Shown piece after piece: positions 12,884 through 28,708 of a stretch of 64,000 nucleotides of DNA (the first letter of the stretch is position 1; each line of letters begins with the position of its first letter). This stretch comes from Parcubacteria group bacterium. Its GTDB lineage: Bacteria; Patescibacteriota; Patescibacteriia; UBA2169. The notes below the pieces were generated by a model. That model was not told where the DNA came from. It was given only the letters and a program-made list of their open reading frames with translations, and did no database searches. Both the position numbers and the translations under genes were made by a program. The DNA is taken from assembly GCA_016181765.1 (NCBI GenBank), contig JACOYR010000001.1, positions 221,414 through 285,413 on the forward strand. Direction: 5' to 3'.

Positions 12884-14293
12884 CTATTGATTCTTAACCC
12901 TTTTTATAGCGTATCCCTGTTCTTGATCCTGAATTTCATAGCCGCGCTTGGCTAATGTTAGCCTAATCTTGTCTGATTTTCCAAATTCTTTCATCTTTTT
13001 CAGTTTCCAGCGCTCTTCCGCACGTTCCTTGATTGATGCGGGAATGCTGCTCTGCTCGCGCGCCAAGCGCTTTGACTGTTTGATGAGATCAAGCCCGAGT
13101 GTTGCATCCGCCTGTTTGATAAAAGAGAGCAGGCTTTTTTGATCAAGGCCGGGGTCTTTGGCCGCCTCCCAGAGCACGGCAAGGGCCCGGGGAGTGTCCA
13201 GATCATCGCTCAAGCGCTGCTTGAATTTTTTGAGGTATGAATCCGCGCTTTTGCTTTTTTTGGCGGTGCGCGTGCGAGTGATTTCTTCCCAAAGATTCTG
13301 CAATGCGCGCTGTGCCGCCCCAAGGCTTTCCCACGAAAAGTGGAGCTGGGAACGATAGTGTGTGGTGAGCGCCAAGTACCGGAATGCGAGGGGCTCAAAA
13401 CCCCGCTTCTTGGCGTCCGCGAGGGTTATGAACGCCCCCTTTGACTTTGACATCTTGGCGCGGTCAATCACCAAGTATTCGTTATGCATCCAGACCTTGG
13501 CGAGGGGCTTGCCGTATGCCGCTTCTGACTGGGCAATTTCATTAGTGTGGTGCGTTCCGATGTGGTCAATGCCGCCGGTATGGATGTCAAACGGCTGGCC
13601 CAGGTATTTTGACGAGATGGCCGAGCACTCAATGTGCCAGCCCGGAAACCCGTCTCCCCAGGGCGATGCCCAGTGCATGGCGTGATTTTTGTGGCGACCA
13701 GCTCTCTTGAACCACAAGGCAAAATCAGCGGGGTGGCGTTTGTCCGGGTCTTCCACAACTTCACCACGCGCCGCAACCCGCTTTTCTTCCAAAGACTGGC
13801 CGGAAAGTTTTCCGTATGCCTTACACCGGGAAATGTCAAAATACACGGCCTGCTCGGTCTCGTAGGCATAGCCTTTTTTGAACAGCAGTTGGATGAGCTT
13901 GATCTGGTCTTTAACCGTGTCCGTGGCTCTGACGACGCGGCTGGGCTTCTTGATGTTGAGTTCCGCGCAGTCCCTGAAAAACGCATCTGCATAGAAACGC
14001 GAAACATCCCACACTGACTTTTTCTCCTTCTTTGCCTCTCTCTCCACTTTGTCTTCCCCGGAATCGGCGTCGCTGGTTAAGTGCCCCACGTCCGTGATGT
14101 TCATGACGCGCTTAACCGCAAACCCCTCAAACGCAAGCGTGCGCTCCAAAACGTCCGCGAACACGTACGAGCGCAAGTTTCCGATGTGCGCGTAGTGGTA
14201 CACCGTGGGGCCGCACGTGTACAGCCTGGCACTCCCTTTTTTGAGGGGTTTGAATGCCTGCTTTTTTCTGGTGAGCGTGTTGTAGAGTTTCAT
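12884..14293 (-). CDS. cysS: cysteine--tRNA ligase
   Basis: MKLYNTLTRKKQAF start (compare E. coli MLKIFNTLTR) and the CGPTVYHYAHIGN HIGH and KMSKS motifs. A TGCTATCAT -10 lies 10 nt upstream. The ORF extension to 14599 is rejected. Confidence 0.9.
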   Translation of the reverse strand: MKLYNTLTRKKQAFKPLKKGSARLYTCGPTVYHYAHIGNLRSYVFADVLERTLAFEGFAVKRVMNITDVGHLTSDADSGEDKVEREAKKEKKSVWDVSRFYADAFFRDCAELNIKKPSRVVRATDTVKDQIKLIQLLFKKGYAYETEQAVYFDISRCKAYGKLSGQSLEEKRVAARGEVVEDPDKRHPADFALWFKRAGRHKNHAMHWASPWGDGFPGWHIECSAISSKYLGQPFDIHTGGIDHIGTHHTNEIAQSEAAYGKPLAKVWMHNEYLVIDRAKMSKSKGAFITLADAKKRGFEPLAFRYLALTTHYRSQLHFSWESLGAAQRALQNLWEEITRTRTAKKSKSADSYLKKFKQRLSDDLDTPRALAVLWEAAKDPGLDQKSLLSFIKQADATLGLDLIKQSKRLAREQSSIPASIKERAEERWKLKKMKEFGKSDKIRLTLAKRGYEIQDQEQGYAIKRVKNQ

Positions 14294-14340
14294 ATATGGC
14301 TCAATGATAGCACCTTTTAGCGCCCTGCTCAACGAAAACA

Positions 14341-14375
14341 AAAACCCAGCCGAATCGGCTGGGTTTTTGTTTTCG
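14341..14375. terminator. bidirectional intrinsic terminator upstream of cysS
   Basis: cccagccg-aat-cggctggg stem flanked by an A-run on one side and tttttgtttt on the other. Confidence 0.65.
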
Positions 14376-14585
14376 GTTTCAATGCAGTTACATCGCGGCT
14401 TCGGAACCTTCGGAATCGCCTGCCTCTTCTGAACCGCCGCCTGCTTCCGCCTCAAGATCCGAGTCTTCGGATCCTTCATCCCCATCTTGGGGAGCCATGG
14501 GCGCTGCGGGAACTTGGGCCTCGTCGCTGCCCGCGTCCGGCATGAGCGTAGTTTCGTCTTGCATAATGCATTTTGCTTACTGCTA

Positions 14586-14615
14586 AAAAATCCGAACACG
14601 CATATCTAGGGTTCG
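14586..14615 (-). terminator. rho-independent terminator of the PKD surface-protein gene
   Basis: Minus strand reads TCCGAAC-cctagatatgcgt-GTTCGGA then TTTTTT. Confidence 0.65.
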
Positions 14616-14652
14616 GATTGTATTCGTAATTATAGCACACGCCCCTCTATTG

Positions 14653-16635
14653 TCAAGCTGTGGCGCTTGAAAAGTTGTTGATGACGAACGAGGCAATGCC
14701 CCATGCCGCAAATATAACAAAGAGCCCGATGACCCCGGCTATGATGGCCTGCTTGCCGGACGCGGTCTGGTCCTCGTTGCCTGCGGCTGTCATCATTCTG
14801 AACCCGCCGAAGATGATGAAAATGACTGCGATAACTCCTAAAAATCCGAGGACAATATTGATGATGGCCGCGATTGAGCCCTTGAGGTCATTAGACTGCC
14901 CGATACCCACCCGCGAGAACGTGCTCGCGAGCCCGTAGTTGGAAGCGCGCGGATCAAGCGGGGTGCTGATTGCGGTGTCGGCGCCGATGTTGCCGCCGCC
15001 GACACCGCAATCAGCGGATGAAGCCCGGCACTGGTTGCCGCACCACACAAATCCGAATGACGTGCATGAGGATTCGTTAGTGCATAGCGAAGGCGCGGTT
15101 GCACAAGAATCACCCGCGCTTTCTTGTTGAATCACCACATTTCGCTGAAAGCTCTCTTCCTGGGCAGGGCTTGAGCCGTCACTCACGGTCGCTACCACAT
15201 CAAACGTCCCGTATGCGCTAAATGAGTATTCGCACTCCAAAGTGGTTGCGGTTGAGGTGCACGGCGCGGTGGTCCGGTTAGCCGGGGAAAGCTGGATTTG
15301 GTACGGAGGCGTGCCGTTTGAGGCAGTGGCGCGGAACACGTACGTCTGCGGAGCAGGAGGAGCGAGCCCGGTGCCAATCTGGATGGTGAGTGATTTGTTG
15401 TTTGACTCAACCAAAGTGACGAGGAGCGGCGATGGTGCGGACGCAATGTTCAGGGTCGGAGAGAACGGGGTGGTGCCCGCGGGCGCGTTCGTGTTGATAA
15501 TGCTATGGGTGATGGCGTCGGTCTGGGTGCGGAACGTGGCATCAATCACCGTAAGGTAAATGTTCTTAAGTCCGCTCCTCCTAAACTGGGCATCCAGCTG
15601 GCTGGTGCGGCCAAAGGTCGCCACTTCGTAGGTAATGAAGTCATTAGGCTGCTCATCAGTGGGCACGTCATTGGGGTAGTTCCAGATGTAGGTGAACGGC
15701 GGCACCCCGCCATCAACAGCGGCATCGGCGCTGTAGTTGACTGAACCGAACGTGAACGGTTCAGCCTGGCCGGAATAGACGCCCGGAGCTGTAGCGCTCG
15801 TCACGTCAACCGAAAACGCGGCATCTCCGACCGTTGCTGGATTGTCGGTTGCAAAAAACACGTACGAGCTTGTGTCATACACCGGAATGTAACCGCCTCC
15901 AACCGCATTGGATTGGTTCGCCCGCAGGGTAATCTCATACCACCCTGGCACGGGGATGATAACAGAGAACGCACCGGCCGCATCGCTCGTGACGCTCACG
16001 CTATCGGCTTTCACCTCGGTTCGCGACGAGTCCGCAACGCGCCACTGGAATGTCTGCTCCGCCGTCCAGAAACCGGAGTTGATGCCCCGGACCGAGGCAT
16101 TGGCTCGGAAGTCAATCTGCGAACCGGTTGCGTAGGGCCCAGGCCCGTCAACCCTGGTGACGTTCGCGAATGGCCACGTATCCCGCACACCGGCCTTTTC
16201 CGCGAGGGTCAGGGAATTATAATTATCCGGCAGCCTAAGCGGCTTGACGTCAATGTCAAACGGGTACTGGGCCGCGGGCTGGACGCCGGTGCTCGCGTAG
16301 AGCCGCAGCACGGGCCGAATGACGGCTGTTGATGCAAACTGCTTGTCATAGAGGTGCGTTGCCCTGCCATTATTGCCGACATCGCCAATGGCGGATTCAC
16401 CGTCTCCAAAGTCCCACACATAGATAAGCCCGGCCGCGTCAGCTACGTTCGCGGTAAAAGTGACCGGCTCGCGCGCATACACTGCATTCGGGGCCGGAGT
16501 GTATGAGACCGAAGTAATGGCAGGAGCCGCGGAAACTGCGGGCGCAAAAAAAACGTTCCCGAAAAAGAACGGCGCGCTCACCAGGGCCGATGAAACCAAC
16601 CTGACTAATAGCCTGATCCCGCGATGAATCATCAA
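14653..16635 (-). CDS. secreted PKD-domain surface protein with C-terminal two-TM pilin-like (TrbC/VirB2-like) anchor
   Basis: Signal peptide; VWDFGDGESAIG PKD motif; Cys-rich region; C-terminal two hydrophobic helices (IAAIINIVLGFLGVIAVIFIIFGG ... AIIAGVIGLFVIFAAWGIASFVI). Confidence 0.6.
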   Translation of the reverse strand: MMIHRGIRLLVRLVSSALVSAPFFFGNVFFAPAVSAAPAITSVSYTPAPNAVYAREPVTFTANVADAAGLIYVWDFGDGESAIGDVGNNGRATHLYDKQFASTAVIRPVLRLYASTGVQPAAQYPFDIDVKPLRLPDNYNSLTLAEKAGVRDTWPFANVTRVDGPGPYATGSQIDFRANASVRGINSGFWTAEQTFQWRVADSSRTEVKADSVSVTSDAAGAFSVIIPVPGWYEITLRANQSNAVGGGYIPVYDTSSYVFFATDNPATVGDAAFSVDVTSATAPGVYSGQAEPFTFGSVNYSADAAVDGGVPPFTYIWNYPNDVPTDEQPNDFITYEVATFGRTSQLDAQFRRSGLKNIYLTVIDATFRTQTDAITHSIINTNAPAGTTPFSPTLNIASAPSPLLVTLVESNNKSLTIQIGTGLAPPAPQTYVFRATASNGTPPYQIQLSPANRTTAPCTSTATTLECEYSFSAYGTFDVVATVSDGSSPAQEESFQRNVVIQQESAGDSCATAPSLCTNESSCTSFGFVWCGNQCRASSADCGVGGGNIGADTAISTPLDPRASNYGLASTFSRVGIGQSNDLKGSIAAIINIVLGFLGVIAVIFIIFGGFRMMTAAGNEDQTASGKQAIIAGVIGLFVIFAAWGIASFVINNFSSATA

Positions 16636-16708: not shown

Positions 16709-17206
16709 TCACCGCGCTTTCATCTTAATCATGAGCCAGTTCTTTTTTTCTCCTCCGAATGCAGTGCGCACCAGGGCGTACGGCCCTTTGAGCTTCTTGC
16801 CCGCGAACACGACTTCTATCTGGCCCTGTGCGGCCGCACTCTTTATAGGCATCTCGCTGCCGTCTTTTTTCTGCTTGATGTTTTGGTACGTGCCCGTGTC
16901 CCAGATGGTGACCGTGCCTGCGCCATACTCCCCCTGCGGAATCTCGCCTTCAAAACTGCCATACTCCATGGGGTGGTCTTCGGTCGCAACCGCCAGGCGC
17001 TTGTCCGACGGATTTAATGGCGGGCCTTTGGGCACTGCCCAGGATTTGAGCACCCCGCCAATTTCCAATCGCACGTCATAGTGCAGTGCGCGCGCGTGGT
17101 GCTCGTGCACCACAAAGACGGGATCCTTTGATGAATGTTTTTTTGATGAGCCGACAGGCTCGCTGGTTTTCTTGAAATCGCGCTTTGCTTTGTACTCCTT
17201 GAGCAT
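16709..17206 (-). CDS. standalone DNA ligase D 3'-phosphoesterase (PE) domain protein
   Basis: FVVHEHHARALHYDVRLE and the rest match the LigD PE domain; 165 aa with no ligase or polymerase domains attached. Confidence 0.7.
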   Translation of the reverse strand: MLKEYKAKRDFKKTSEPVGSSKKHSSKDPVFVVHEHHARALHYDVRLEIGGVLKSWAVPKGPPLNPSDKRLAVATEDHPMEYGSFEGEIPQGEYGAGTVTIWDTGTYQNIKQKKDGSEMPIKSAAAQGQIEVVFAGKKLKGPYALVRTAFGGEKKNWLMIKMKAR

Positions 17207-17267
17207 GCGTTCATTTTAACAAAAAAAGGCGGGGAGCAGTAGGATGCATGTCAATACTCCAAGCGCC

Positions 17268-17297
17268 TTGACATTTTTTAAAAAATGGGCAATAATT
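17268..17297 (+). promoter_or_regulatory. sigma70-like promoter of the first beta-CA-like gene
   Basis: TTGACA at 17268-17273, 17-18 nt spacer, AATAAT/ATAATT; ATG at 17309 about 10 nt after the -10. Confidence 0.5.
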
Positions 17298-17308
17298 AAC
17301 AATTATTT

Positions 17309-18391
17309 ATGGATCAAAACAATCCCATCATTACGTTCCTCTTGGAGCACAACAAGCGCCAGAGCGAGCTGTTCTGCAGCCCGGATGCGGCGCTCGCGAG
17401 GCGCCAGTACCGCGCAACCCACCCCACGGAAATCGCGGCCTTAAAGTGCATGGACGGACGCCTCAACCTGGCCGTGCAAACCCAGACCCCGCCCGGCATC
17501 ATCCAGCCTTTCCGCAACATCGGCGGCATGTTTGACATCGGCTGGCCGTACTTTGGGGAGATCGCGAGCGGCTGGGTGAACTACGCCATCAGCAAGGGCC
17601 GCTCCGGCGTCATCCTGGTGACGTACCACTACTCCAAAGGGGACGCGCACCGCGGGTGCCGCGGATTTAACTACGACACTGAAGCGGCCAAGGCCTACAC
17701 GCGCGACTTATCAAACCAGATTGAGCGGGTCTTTGGCACAGAGCATAAGGTTATCTACCCGATCCAGGTCGGCATTGAAACCGATGACGAGGCTCTGATA
17801 GTGCACGGAAAAAACGGCGAAACCCTGAACCTGGCCGAAGAGCCGGCCGCAACTGAAGACGCATTGCGGCAGAGGGTGGAAAAGCTGTACCCAGACATGG
17901 GCAAGCAGATGGCTGTTGACATTGTGCCCCTGTTTTTGGGGAACCAGCGCCACATCGCCGCAATCAGAGCCTCTAACCGGCCCGTGGTTAATACCGAGCA
18001 CAGGGAGCAGGTCCTGGTTGTGGGCCGGGGCATGGACTGGCTGCATTTGCCGAACAAGGCCCTGATTGTGGGACCCTACAGCTACAATTTGCGCGAACCC
18101 ATTGTGGCCGCGGCCGGCATCCTGCTGGATAACATAAAAAAAGGCCGCGTCCCGGAACAAGACGGCCTCGTGCTCCTGACTTCAGCCGCGTACCGCGAGG
18201 ACGCGGGCTTTGAAAAACTGCGCGCCATTGAAAAGGCCCGTTCGTTTGCGGACTTTGCCCTGGACGCCATCTACGAAGCCGTGCCCGAGATCAAGCCGCA
18301 CCTGCATCTGCTCGCAAGCATCGTGGATTTGAACACCCGCCTCTTGACCGTAGTTCCGCCGCGCAACCAGGCACCGGGCACTGCGCGCTAA
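17309..18391 (+). CDS. beta-carbonic-anhydrase-like protein with C-terminal extension (360 aa)
   Basis: KCMDGR...PPGIIQPFRNIGG aligns with beta-CA CSDSR...EPGELFVHRNVAN (CxDxR and PGxxFxxRN motifs), and a later H-x-x-C (AHRGCRG) matches HxxCG. This is recall-based alignment to E. coli Can, not a search. Confidence 0.5.
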   Translation: MDQNNPIITFLLEHNKRQSELFCSPDAALARRQYRATHPTEIAALKCMDGRLNLAVQTQTPPGIIQPFRNIGGMFDIGWPYFGEIASGWVNYAISKGRSGVILVTYHYSKGDAHRGCRGFNYDTEAAKAYTRDLSNQIERVFGTEHKVIYPIQVGIETDDEALIVHGKNGETLNLAEEPAATEDALRQRVEKLYPDMGKQMAVDIVPLFLGNQRHIAAIRASNRPVVNTEHREQVLVVGRGMDWLHLPNKALIVGPYSYNLREPIVAAAGILLDNIKKGRVPEQDGLVLLTSAAYREDAGFEKLRAIEKARSFADFALDAIYEAVPEIKPHLHLLASIVDLNTRLLTVVPPRNQAPGTAR

Positions 18392-18443
18392 TATCACCAG
18401 CAGCGTTTTGCGGGCACTGCCCCTAAAACGCTGCCGGTGATAT
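18391..18443. repeat. 19-bp near-perfect inverted repeat (hairpin) between the two beta-CA-like genes
   Basis: atatcaccagcagcgtttt ...15-nt loop... aaaacgctgccggtgatat, one mismatch; the loop itself contains ggg...ccc. Confidence 0.8.
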
Positions 18444-18484
18444 TGTACTTTCCACGTTCCGTGCTTTTGCCTTGGGGAGGGCGC

Positions 18485-19027
18485 ATGCACGCACTATCGG
18501 AAAATGACGTAGCCATTGTTCGTTCGTTGCGGGATGCAGGCGTTCTGCAAGATGTTGAAAGCCACCGGCTGGACCAAAGCAACGGAGTGATACTGGTTAC
18601 CTGCCCGGATGGGGACCACTTCGTTGACATCTTCAGCCACCAGCTACGGATGCAAGAAGGCCAATGCAGCGACCCGCGCATCCACCCGCTCGGCTGGCAC
18701 GGCGGCGCCATCCGCCTGGTTGCGGGTTCGCCAGCCAACAAGCACCCGGGCGAACACCAGATCTTCCTGGAGGAGATCCGGGACGCGCGGGGGCTGAAAG
18801 GCATCAACACTGTTGCCCTCTACAGCCATGCGCAGTGCGGCAAAGCAAGCGCGTGCGGAGTTGACTTCCTGCAGCTGATGATGCTCCACATGCAGGCCAA
18901 AGCCGCCGTCAAAGCCATGAATAGCGGCATTTCCGTTGCGTGCTTCCTGCACGTCACCTATCCCACTGGGACCCGGCGGACGTACTTTGTCTCCCGGCCG
19001 GATTGGGACCGATGGTTCAGCACTTAA
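18485..19027 (+). CDS. second, more divergent beta-CA-like/paralogous protein (180 aa)
   Basis: GVILVTCPDGDH resembles GVILVTYHYSKGDAH of the upstream protein, and ALYSHAQCGKA resembles the beta-CA HxxCG motif. The GGGAGGG SD is 4 nt before ATG 18485; the listed 18437 start is a GTG inside the hairpin stem. Confidence 0.4.
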   Translation: MHALSENDVAIVRSLRDAGVLQDVESHRLDQSNGVILVTCPDGDHFVDIFSHQLRMQEGQCSDPRIHPLGWHGGAIRLVAGSPANKHPGEHQIFLEEIRDARGLKGINTVALYSHAQCGKASACGVDFLQLMMLHMQAKAAVKAMNSGISVACFLHVTYPTGTRRTYFVSRPDWDRWFST

Positions 19028-19061
19028 AGCCCCAATCACACTGCCCTTTCGCCACGAACCA

Positions 19062-19098
19062 CCCGGACATATGGAGGATGTCCGGGGTTCTTTTTTTA
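19062..19098. terminator. bidirectional intrinsic terminator (beta-CA-like operon / typA)
   Basis: cccggacat-atggagg-atgtccggg followed by gttcttttttt. Confidence 0.7.
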
Positions 19099-19107
19099 CT
19101 GAAATAG

Positions 19108-26416: not shown

Positions 26417-26503
26417 GGGTCGGTAGCGAAGCGGTCAAACGCGTCTGACTGTAAATCAGATGGCCTCGTGCCTTCGGGGGTTCGAATCCCTCCCGGCCCA
26501 CCA
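26417..26503 (+). tRNA. tRNA-Tyr (anticodon GTA), class II long variable arm
   Basis: Acceptor GGGTCGG/CCGGCCC, anticodon loop CTGTAAA, long variable arm, CCA encoded; TGGTATTAT -10 at 26386-26394. Confidence 0.8.
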
Positions 26504-26505
26504 AA

Positions 26506-26535
26506 AATATCCGCCTTGAGGCGGATATTTTTGTT
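26506..26535 (+). terminator. rho-independent terminator after tRNA-Tyr
   Basis: aatatccgcc-ttga-ggcggatatt then tttttg. Confidence 0.75.
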
Positions 26536-27587: not shown

Positions 27588-27663
27588 TGGAGCCGTTGCG
27601 CGGAATTGAACCGCGGACCTACTCCTTACCATGGAGTTGCTCTACCAGCTGAGCTACAACGGC
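27588..27663 (-). tRNA. tRNA-Thr (anticodon GGT)
   Basis: Acceptor GCCGTTG/CAACGGC, anticodon stem ACTCC/GGAGT, loop ATGGTAA, T-arm CGCGG-TTCAATT-CCGCG, CCA encoded. Confidence 0.75.
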
Positions 27664-27675
27664 TTGATTGTAAAA

Positions 27676-27826
27676 TATTAGGACTTACGCGTTTGCCGTC
27701 ATTCTGGAGCGAAAGTACTCTTGAGCGATAGAATCTATGCGTTTTTCACGGAGATTCTATCGGCTTTGAGTACAAAGCCTCCAGAATGACGGCTATTTTT
27801 GTCAAACGCGTAAGTCCTAAATATAT
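27676..27826. repeat. ~150-nt imperfect palindrome (MITE-like or structured RNA element) between TPR gene and tRNA-Thr
   Basis: Arms ttaggacttacgcgtttg (18/18), ccgtcattctggag (14/14), gtactc and gatagaatct (10/10) pair with their reverse complements across the centre. Confidence 0.7.
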
Positions 27827-28708
27827 TTATTTCAATCCCTTCACCTTCTTTTCAAACTCCGCAAGCCTGCCGTGGTCCGGGTTTATCTTTTTGATTTTTT
27901 CCAGCGCCTCCTTGGCAAGGGGCTTATTCTTAAGGAGCACCGCAACCGTGAACAGCCGATCCAGGACCTTGGGGTTATTCGGTTCCAGGGCTTGGGCCTT
28001 CTGCAGGCTTGAGAACGCTTTTTCCGCGTCATTCAGCTGCAAGTACACGTCAGCCAAATCCAGGTGGTAATCCACGACCTCGTTGTTGATGGAGAGCGCG
28101 TGCAAAAAGTGGTCCTTGGCCGCTTCCAGCTTCCCCTGCTCCCGGAGCGTGCGCGCGAGCGACGCGAACCCCCGGTCCTCCTGGGGCCACTGCCTGGTTG
28201 CGTACTCAAAGGTCTCTATGGCCTGGGCGAGCTCGCCCATTTCGCGGTACGTCTCCCCCAATCCCTGGTAGGCGTCCGTTGATTCCGGATCCACTTTAAT
28301 GGCTGAAAGGTATTTGGACTCTGCCTGGGAAAACTTTTTTGCGCGCCGGGCTTCTTCCGCCTCTTCCAAAAGTTCACGGACTTTGGACTGCGCTTTTTTG
28401 CTTGAATCCGGAAGCGTGCCCTGGAACCGATACGCGCGCTCCAGCTTGCGCACGCGCTCCAGTGTACTCTGGAACAGGGAGCCTGCGAGCGCCTTGCCCG
28501 GCTGCAGTATGCCCGAGGCGAACTTGAACACGCCCTCCAGTTTGCGCAGGAGCCGGTGCTCCAAGAGCGAGGCCTTAAGCACGGCGTCGCGCTCCTCCGG
28601 GATCTTGGATACGTCCAGGCTCGCCGCTTTCTTGAGGTGGCGCGAGGCAATGATGAGGATGGTTCCGATGCTCGCGATAATGACTGCAAGTGGAATGATC
28701 GTAAGCAT
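27827..28708 (-). CDS. TPR-repeat protein with N-terminal TM anchor
   Basis: N-terminal hydrophobic helix followed by multiple 34-aa TPR-like repeats (AxxxYxxAlxlxP pattern). Confidence 0.65.
   Translation of the reverse strand: MLTIIPLAVIIASIGTILIIASRHLKKAASLDVSKIPEERDAVLKASLLEHRLLRKLEGVFKFASGILQPGKALAGSLFQSTLERVRKLERAYRFQGTLPDSSKKAQSKVRELLEEAEEARRAKKFSQAESKYLSAIKVDPESTDAYQGLGETYREMGELAQAIETFEYATRQWPQEDRGFASLARTLREQGKLEAAKDHFLHALSINNEVVDYHLDLADVYLQLNDAEKAFSSLQKAQALEPNNPKVLDRLFTVAVLLKNKPLAKEALEKIKKINPDHGRLAEFEKKVKGLK

Follow-up and report, generated by a model that had tools for sequence, protein, structure and literature searches.

We have identified a pair of adjacent plus-strand genes, here called A and B, in a 64,000-nucleotide (nt) stretch of the genome of a Parcubacteria group bacterium (GenBank assembly GCA_016181765.1, contig JACOYR010000001.1). 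The two genes encode members of the beta-carbonic anhydrase (beta-CA) superfamily that are unrelated to each other in sequence, and a terminator-type hairpin lies between them. Taken together, the evidence is best explained by a two-gene inorganic-carbon module, a reading to which we assign a probability of roughly 0.7. Gene A is a new member of a kind of carbonic anhydrase (CA) that is already known but uncharacterised, CsoSCA2. The new part is gene B, which represents a large, unannotated beta-CA-fold family with an altered catalytic dyad and a consistent genomic association; the novelty lies neither in the neighbouring LigD-type phosphoesterase (PE) nor in a gene duplication, both of which a preliminary description of this DNA had stressed.

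The host is an ultra-small, groundwater-type member of the Patescibacteria. Bacteria of this lineage have tiny genomes and few biosynthetic carboxylases; many nonetheless keep two or three different beta-CA-superfamily genes, and the locus offers a concrete handle on why. B recurs beside conventional CAs and beside the ATP synthase operon, which suggests that inorganic-carbon chemistry and proton energetics are linked in these organisms; no such link is described in the literature searched. Approximately 700 clusters of proteins annotated as 'hypothetical protein' can now be annotated as predicted beta-CA-fold zinc-site proteins.

The whole 64,000-nt stretch is referred to as the window, and position 1 is its first letter throughout. 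Three open reading frames (ORFs) had been proposed for the locus, and all are present: the two genes and, on the opposite strand, that of the PE.

16709..17206, minus strand: LigD-type 3'-phosphoesterase, 165 amino acids (aa), assigned by PF13298 and TIGR02777
17309..18391, plus strand: gene A, compact CsoSCA-type beta-CA, 360 aa, assigned by structural model, Foldseek and profile
17447..17461, plus strand: C47-M-D49-G-R51 motif of A, predicted first zinc ligand and Asp/Arg dyad
17627..17659, plus strand: H107 to C117 of A, predicted second and third zinc ligands with CsoSCA-type spacing, enclosing H114-x-x-C117
18485..19027, plus strand: gene B, beta-CA-fold single-domain protein, 180 aa, assigned by structural model and family alignment
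18602-18610 and 18827-18838, plus strand: predicted zinc site of B (C40, D42, H115 and C118)

Gene A is a compact CsoSCA-type carbonic anhydrase

Gene A encodes a compact, non-carboxysomal beta-CA of the CsoSCA type and belongs to the CsoSCA2 group. Its AlphaFold2 model (pLDDT 93.6) comprises two N-terminal helices within aa 6-37 (aa 6-23 and 25-37), a catalytic domain at approximately aa 40-175 whose strand begins at aa 41, and a second beta-CA-like domain at approximately aa 180-350. The Rubisco-binding region of the carboxysomal enzyme is missing from the model. Foldseek placed the model on the CsoSCA structures 8thm, 2fgy and 9g4t with E-values of 1e-15 to 2e-14 and template modelling (TM) scores of 0.69-0.72 (TMq) over 385-398 columns. 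The chain thus has the two-domain CsoSCA fold, in which a catalytic and a zinc-less second domain share one polypeptide. Since the match runs over the whole chain, the C-terminal half, described earlier as about 160 aa of unknown function, is the zinc-less second beta-CA-like domain that defines CsoSCA. Weak sequence matches of this half to VipA/TssB-like sheath domains in the PDB (E 0.003-0.06) are spurious, as the fold search puts the entire chain on CsoSCA.

Sequence profiles lead to the same family. A profile built from 60 members of the A family matched the CsoSCA sequences 2FGY (E 7e-7), 8THM (E 1.5e-6) and 9G4T (E ~1e-6). The Pfam comparison that had been proposed for both proteins was informative for A only below threshold and gave nothing for B: A alone scored 20.5 bits against a cut-off of 21.5 for PF20686 (CsoSCA_cat; E 3.6e-4) and 19.4 bits against 25.7 for Pro_CA, and many A homologues at 52-63% identity carry PF20686. 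More than 818 homologues of approximately 350 aa were found, all annotated as 'hypothetical protein', and every one with a named source comes from Patescibacteria or from the metagenome-assembled genome of an unclassified bacterium.

Eight residues are invariant among the 60 homologues, namely C47, M48, D49, G50, R51, R69, H107 and C117. In the hidden Markov model (HMM) alignment, H107 and C117 fall on 2fgy chain residues 270 and 281, which are His242 and Cys253 in native CsoSCA numbering. C47, D49 and R51 correspond to CsoSCA Cys173, Asp175 and Arg177 (Sawaya 2006, cited in PMC9164163). The KCMDGR, FRNIGG and H-R-G-C motifs reported for A are all present. The zinc histidine is most likely H107, which is invariant and aligned to CsoSCA His242, and probably not H114 of the H-x-x-C motif, which is at least 90% conserved and not invariant. 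With its site intact, A is predicted to catalyse the reaction CO2 + H2O <-> HCO3- + H+.

The CsoSCA2 group was described in 2022 as compact proteins with an active and a defunct domain and a two-helix N-terminus of about 40 aa, encoded outside carboxysome loci (PMC9164163). The description is bioinformatic only, the group never having been studied experimentally, and it lists Falkow-, Magasanik-, Moran-, Pace-, Staskawicz- and Uhrbacteria as hosts (PMC9164163). Gene A agrees with it in compactness, in the two-helix N-terminus, in the combination of an active with a defunct domain, in the presence of all active-site residues and in its position outside carboxysome loci, so that A is not a new type. 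What the CsoSCA2 paper (PMC9164163) does not mention is pairing with a second beta-CA-fold gene, a position at the atp operon or a hairpin.

With CsoSCA of the alpha-carboxysome shell (2FGY, 8THM, 9G4T), A shares the two-domain architecture, the Cys...His-x10-Cys spacing and the Asp/Arg dyad. It differs in lacking the N-terminal domain of about 140 aa and the Rubisco-binding peptide, in its shorter loops and in its length (360 versus approximately 515 aa), as well as in lying outside any carboxysome locus. The genes around A (PE, BipA, a DEAD helicase, cysteinyl-tRNA synthetase and a pilin) are a housekeeping setting, and no carboxysome genes occur among the neighbours examined. The host lineage is not known to form carboxysomes or to run Calvin-cycle CO2 fixation. 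The CsoSCA2 family is widespread and is likely the ancestor of the carboxysomal enzyme.

Gene B represents a large family with a changed dyad

Gene B is a member of a branch of the beta-CA superfamily, a large unnamed family, found to date in Patescibacteria alone, that is the sister of Pfam Pro_CA_2 (PF20393) and in which the dyad is changed. Its AlphaFold2 model is confident (pLDDT 91.1) and contains the beta-CA core fold, with which Foldseek agrees in kind, although weakly (E 3.7e-4). Cys40 stands right after a strand and His115-x-x-Cys118 at a strand-helix junction, as in beta-CAs. In an alignment of 111 members, with identity to the window protein down to 29%, the only invariant columns are C40, D42, H115 and C118, while H67, G73, G74, K105, P117, A121 and Y167 are at least 90% conserved. 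The H-x-x-C motif is accordingly universal (111/111), with P117 in 107/111 and G119 in 84/111.

The C-x-D-x-R motif is not kept. The position four residues after the cysteine is Asp in 94/111 members (85%), His in 11/111 (10%) and Arg in 2/111; one residue further on, 68% have Gln, 19% Arg (21/111) and 6% His. The window protein has Asp44 and His45 where the dyad Arg would be expected. The conserved residues bear out the view that both A and B carry a Cys/Asp/His/Cys site and that the dyad Arg is absent from B, and the GVILVTC and HAQCG motifs reported for B are present.

With clustering at 50% identity, an exhaustive profile search recovered 700 clusters, of which 547 had E <= 1e-10, whereas a word-indexed search found only 24 relatives. 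For the comparison of neighbourhoods we used loci designated by L numbers, a set of 80 metagenome loci containing CsoSCA2 (CsoSCA2 set) and a set of 18 species-representative genomes containing B (species set). All named B members are 'hypothetical proteins' of the candidate phyla radiation (Parcu-, Komeili-, Lloyd-, Magasanik- and Nealsonbacteria). The 18 loci of the species set also include contigs labelled Paceibacterota, Lipton-, Uhr- and Nomurabacteria, and a few labelled Gammaproteobacteria or Saccharibacteria; the last two labels are taken to be binning or labelling errors.

The family is invisible to existing models. The window protein has no match in Pfam or NCBIfam, and none of the 111 members reaches any Pfam model. 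Against PF00484 (Pro_CA), the window protein has no match at E <= 1 and two of the 111 members matched, the better at E 0.049; hhalign of B against canonical Pro_CA neighbours gave a probability of 6.8%. The PF20393 HMM likewise matched neither B nor its 110 relatives. Neighbouring genes in L012, L014 and L037 do match PF20393 (E 1.8e-9 to 1.4e-20), and to proteins of this Pro_CA_2 type B is aligned by hhalign at 96.4% probability (E 1.3e-9, 129 columns), with reciprocal HMM cross-matches of 1e-4 to 1e-7.

Pro_CA_2, annotated as 'putative carbonic anhydrase', is thereby the nearest detectable relative of B. Both are small single-domain proteins that occur within shared Patescibacteria neighbourhoods, and their C-x-D and H-x-x-C-G motifs are in register. 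The Pro_CA_2 neighbours are approximately 140 aa long and have kept C-x-D-x-R together with H-x-D-C-G. In B, an additional residue follows the Asp, the Arg is replaced by Asp, the middle block is a different one (P-R-I-H-x-L-x-L-N-G-G) and the C-terminus extends further. From Cab-type and type II beta-CAs (1G5C, HICA, ECCA), B differs in the lack of the dyad Arg and of a PF00484 match, and its TM scores to them are 0.33-0.44.

B had been regarded as a partial duplicate of A. This does not hold: BLASTP found only a 7-mer (GVILVT; E 1.2), and two profile-profile comparisons gave nothing beyond it (hhalign probability 4.5-5%). A and B both belong to the beta-CA structural superfamily and are unrelated to each other in sequence. 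In the literature searched, nothing was found on PF20393, on the B family or on CA genes at the Patescibacteria atp operon, and CsoSCA2 appears only in PMC9164163.

Carbonic anhydrases of three types adjoin B

The window locus and its close relatives have the following gene arrangements.

Window: pilin - PE - A - hairpin - B
L001-L003: deoxyhypusine synthase - A - hairpin - B - macB
L008 (short contig): partial A, hairpin, B and one downstream ORF only
L027-L030: Pro_CA (PF00484, 190 aa) - hairpin - B; macB comes next in L027-L029, and in L027 deoxyhypusine synthase lies ahead of Pro_CA
L032: Pro_CA - B, without hairpin
L007, L025, L026: pilin - PE - 238-aa minus-strand ORF - B with its own TTGACA promoter

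Two unrelated types of CA have thus replaced one another ahead of the same hairpin, B and macB, and one lineage has lost its CA. More widely, B adjoins CsoSCA2 (window, L001-3/L008, L004/5, L033, L035, L036, L042 and L043), Pro_CA (L027-L030 and L032) or Pro_CA_2 (L009, L011, L012, L014, L015 and L021). Within the CsoSCA2 set, six loci have B beside CsoSCA2: one in tandem (L042), three convergent (L033, L035 and L043), one reversed (L036) and one in which a weak B-like match lies past a tandem CsoSCA2 pair (L055). A CA-type gene stands next to B in 7 of the 18 genomes of the species set.

The commonest position of B in the sampled species genomes is at the 3' end of the F1 ATP synthase genes atpG-atpD-atpC, which are next to B in 11 of the 18. 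Often B directly follows atpC in the same direction or converges on it. CsoSCA2 itself follows atpC in L050, L055, L060, L062 and L065, and L037 has the order atpC - Pro_CA_2 - CsoSCA2. In many Patescibacteria, one to three beta-CA-superfamily genes (B, Pro_CA_2, CsoSCA2) occupy the 3' end of atpG-atpD-atpC in varying combination and orientation (L004, L009-L012, L014-L016, L018, L019, L021, L022, L037, L050, L055, L060, L062 and L065). No ATP synthase genes were found within the 64-kb window, and the window arrangement is therefore probably derived, as is the place of B between the LigD phosphoesterase and bipA.

Several other features of these loci were observed. A NuoB-like Oxidored_q6 gene follows B in L019. 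Two CsoSCA2 genes lie side by side, in tandem or convergently, in L034, L047, L055 and L057. Polyamine-type genes stand beside the A-B or Pro_CA-B pair in L001 (716..3676) and L027 (339..2193), encoding a CN_hydrolase, an agmatine deiminase (PAD_porph), an arginase-family protein and a deoxyhypusine synthase-like protein. In putrescine synthesis the CN_hydrolase step liberates CO2 together with NH3, and it could be a local source of CO2 near the pair. The 238-aa ORF that takes the place of gene A between PE and B (for example L026 2094..2810, minus strand) has a lipoprotein-like N-terminal signal and C-terminal hydrophobic segments; the copies in L007, L025 and L026 have no Pfam match.

A conserved hairpin separates the two genes

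The following expression signals accompany the pair in the window.

17268..17296, plus strand: sigma-70-like promoter match TTGACA-17-AATAAT, a motif match only, from a consensus scan
18390..18444, plus strand: hairpin with 27-nt arms (18390-18416 and 18418-18444), 89% complementary, around a 1-nt centre, followed by ATTGTACTTTCC
18474..18481, plus strand: Shine-Dalgarno sequence of B, GGGGAGGG, ending 3 nt ahead of the ATG, read from the sequence
19062..19096, plus strand: intrinsic terminator past B, a 9-bp stem with 6 GC pairs followed by GTTCTTTTTT, from a terminator scan and supported by the fold

The canonical -35/-10 promoter reported upstream of A is borne out as a promoter-like match at 11 of the 12 consensus positions; the match ends 13 nt ahead of the ATG of A, which implies a very short leader or none. 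The gap between the genes, given earlier as 46 nt, is 93 nt from the stop of A to the ATG of B (18392..18484). The shorter figure arises only from a spurious GTG at 18437, inside the 3' arm of the hairpin, and the start of B is ATG in all 24 homologues from the word-indexed search.

The hairpin begins inside the TAA stop codon of A. The 19-nt stem with one mismatch that had been noticed here is real and forms the core of the longer inverted repeat. The folding energy is -50.6 kcal/mol (z = -5.0), and none of 200 shuffled sequences was as stable. In six loci (window, L001/L008, L027, L028, L029 and L030), a homologous hairpin comes after the stop codon of the CA gene ahead of B, whichever type that CA is. 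Across the six sequences, 92% of the cells of the 27-pair structure are paired and 10 of the 27 pairs show compensatory changes; the covariation score of 0.442 compares with 0.213 in shuffles (0/500 as high) and slid registers pair at only 37-51%, which with n=6 is indicative rather than conclusive. The apex is GC-rich in the window, L001 and L028 and AU-rich in L027 and L029, a difference that speaks against a loop with a specific sequence.

In form the element resembles a terminator. The orthologous stems are flanked by a 5' A-tract and a 3' U-tract; the U-tract is found in L001, L027, L028, L029 and L030, with tails reading UUUUUGUU, UUUUCGUU, UUUUGUUU or UUUUUUAU. The window stem is very stable, but its tail is only AUUGUACUUU and the terminator scan did not call it, and stems of 23-27 bp are far longer than those of usual terminators. 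Other long A-tract/stem/T-tract hairpins terminate unrelated genes of the window (14333-14375 and 26502-26533). The hairpin is terminator-like in shape and has counterparts at unrelated genes, yet it is conserved with covariation at the orthologous site. The best reading is that of a conserved but dispensable terminator-type intercistronic stem.

Three other identities were considered and rejected. Rfam searches at gathering and E-value thresholds found no family, giving only a chance microRNA match (E 4.9). A dispersed repeat or mobile element does not fit a sequence that occurs once in the window even with three mismatches allowed. As for an integron attC-like cassette end, the arms by eye misfit the R''/R' consensus, and the same hairpin trails two CA types, whereas an attC site travels with its own cassette.

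In the leader of B, the motif GGGAG is kept in eight of nine sequences compared and is replaced by GAGGAG in the ninth. RNAalifold gave no consensus structure between the hairpin and the ATG. By eye, seven of the nine leaders (window 18445..18487; L001 and L027-L032) show a stem of 4-8 bp bracketing the Shine-Dalgarno sequence and extending to the start codon, with apparent compensatory changes (TACGCC/GGTGTA versus TACATC/GATGTA) and shifts of register in the alignment.

A possible two-gene inorganic-carbon module

We propose that A would serve as an active cytosolic CA with a complete Cys47-His107-Cys117 zinc site and Asp49/Arg51 dyad. Its catalytic domain would pack on the zinc-less second domain, a single chain thereby imitating a beta-CA dimer that has only one active site. 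For B, we infer zinc binding through C40, H115 and C118. Asp42 would either activate water or, as is probable, cap the metal in the manner of closed type II beta-CAs, since the Arg that usually restrains it is missing. The predicted pocket has its own conserved set of residues (His67, Lys105, Pro117 and Tyr167), with Asp or His in place of the dyad Arg.

B may act on CO2/bicarbonate or on a close analogue, because a CA of any of three types adjoins it elsewhere in tandem, convergent or reversed orientation. It could then be a differently regulated hydratase, or else an enzyme whose substrate or product must be equilibrated by a true CA, as in cynT-cynS. The hairpin would partly insulate B from the A transcript and probably set the expression of A above that of B; alternatively, it may stabilise the 3' end of the A message. 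Two systems provide working analogies for such coupling. In DabA of the DAB2 inorganic-carbon pump, a Cys/Asp/His/Cys site resembling that of beta-CAs relies on a membrane partner that is coupled to energy, and in cynT-cynS a CA is kept beside an enzyme that makes or uses CO2/HCO3-. B is related in sequence to neither DabA nor CynS, no gene for a membrane partner lies beside it, and its link to ATP synthase is positional only.

A number of observations weigh against the module. Globally, B bears little resemblance to the beta-CA structures that have been solved (Foldseek TM 0.33-0.44). Canonical beta-CAs lose much of their activity without the dyad Arg (Cab R36A), and for this reason B may not be a hydratase. 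The association is also incomplete: B is adjacent in only 6 of the 80 loci of the CsoSCA2 set, the available DNA around roughly half of the B loci contains no CA gene, and the close relatives L007, L025 and L026 have B with its own promoter and without A. The adjacency of B and Pro_CA_2 could be a remnant of an old tandem duplication, and the neighbourhood counts are small and not phylogenetically independent. The hairpin is absent from L032 (cleanly), L004 and L007 and is therefore dispensable. In the window its U-tract is weak (ATTGTACTTT); a consensus scan found no promoter-like site between it and B, so that B probably depends on read-through, and a strong terminator at this point would leave B unexpressed.

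Alternative explanations

Some of these observations would be expected if the adjacency of A and B were a historical accident, an alternative that we regard as doubtful but that fares best among those considered. It holds that genes of the beta-CA superfamily collect, through duplication and transfer, in an island of variable make-up where the atp operon ends, that A and B are independent, and that the hairpin is simply the terminator of A. Paralogues do lie together (CsoSCA2-CsoSCA2 in L034/L047/L055/L057, atpC-Pro_CA_2-CsoSCA2 in L037), many B genes occur singly, the B of L007 is served by a promoter of its own, and a terminator-like hairpin separates A from B. However, the CA upstream of the same hairpin, B and macB was swapped between two unrelated types, and the A-B pair persists through changes of order and orientation. 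These two facts are more easily explained by selection that keeps a CA beside B.

The replacement of the dyad Arg by Asp (85%) or His (10%), which predicts an Asp-capped, closed zinc site, raises the question of whether B is an enzyme at all. B could be a catalytically dead pseudo-enzyme, either a zinc-stabilised scaffold or a sensor of CO2, bicarbonate or pH, that regulates or docks a CA or the F-type ATPase; its strong positional link to the atp operon would suit such a role. The superfamily also offers precedents in the CsoSCA second domain and in LCIB-type proteins, which are structural or regulatory (PMC9164163). We nevertheless consider this unlikely. Proteins of that kind usually lose their ligands, whereas none of the 111 divergent B sequences departs from the three ligands or the catalytic Asp, and partners of three very different architectures make a single conserved docking surface improbable.

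It is less likely still that B hydrolyses a CO2 analogue such as carbonyl sulfide (COS), carbon disulfide (CS2), cyanate or carbamate, with the adjacent true CA equilibrating the released CO2 in the way of cynT-cynS. COS and CS2 hydrolases did evolve from beta-CAs. The known ones, however, keep the C-x-D-x-R dyad, which B does not, and no genes of sulfur, cyanate or carbamate metabolism recur in the neighbourhoods examined.

A bolder and rather improbable proposal is that the B family, to date found in Patescibacteria alone, is a functionally new branch of the superfamily, a zinc enzyme or switch that works with the F-type ATPase. Carbonic anhydrase serves the proton ATPases of acid-secreting animal cells, and by analogy B could supply or buffer protons or bicarbonate at the ATPase; in another variant, it could carry out energy-coupled one-way hydration of CO2 in the manner of DabA. 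If true, this would explain both why B so often closes the atpG-atpD-atpC cluster or converges on it and why some conventional CA, whatever its type, is kept at its side. To link CO2 hydration with proton handling from a position next to ATP synthase genes is speculation.

Neighbouring genes and other features of the window

The assignment of the minus-strand gene upstream of A as a LigD phosphoesterase is secure (PF13298, E 8.7e-44 over the full 107-position model; TIGR02777, E 6.6e-66), and the protein consists of this domain alone. Such free-standing PE proteins have precedents in both archaea and bacteria. The place of the PE beside a beta-CA pair had been put forward as an undescribed arrangement, but other A-B pairs lie beside deoxyhypusine synthase or ATP synthase genes, with PE not adjacent in L001 and L004, and a close relative keeps PE and B without A: an 85%-identical PE copy lies upstream of B in L007, L025 and L026, from which gene A is absent. 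A functional link between PE and the CA pair was rejected, as the synteny is limited to close relatives and independent of A. The PE is an unrelated neighbour, not a conserved partner, and lies outside the CA module.

On the far side of PE, a 660-aa protein (14653..16635, minus strand) contains PKD domains, a SprB repeat and a C-terminal type IV secretion system (T4SS) pilin domain (PF18895, E 2.8e-11), and is syntenic with PE in L026. It is a surface or pilus protein of a type common in Patescibacteria.

Just past the stop of this pilin gene, on the minus strand, a 12/12 extended promoter (TTGACA-16-TG-TATAAT, 14656..14629) precedes cysS, which encodes cysteinyl-tRNA synthetase. The cysS leader of approximately 330 nt (region 14293..14656, minus strand) closes with a perfect 20-bp hairpin of the A-tract/GC/T-tract kind (14333..14375), some 40 nt ahead of the likely start (ATG 14293, MKLYNTL...). 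No T-box or other Rfam family was found upstream of cysS; the leader looks like an attenuator or riboswitch-type leader. A further inverted repeat, which matched no Rfam family, lies at 27695..27793 with 42-nt arms (76% complementary) and a 15-nt spacer, between a tRNA gene (27591..27663, minus strand) and an ORF (27827..28708, minus strand).

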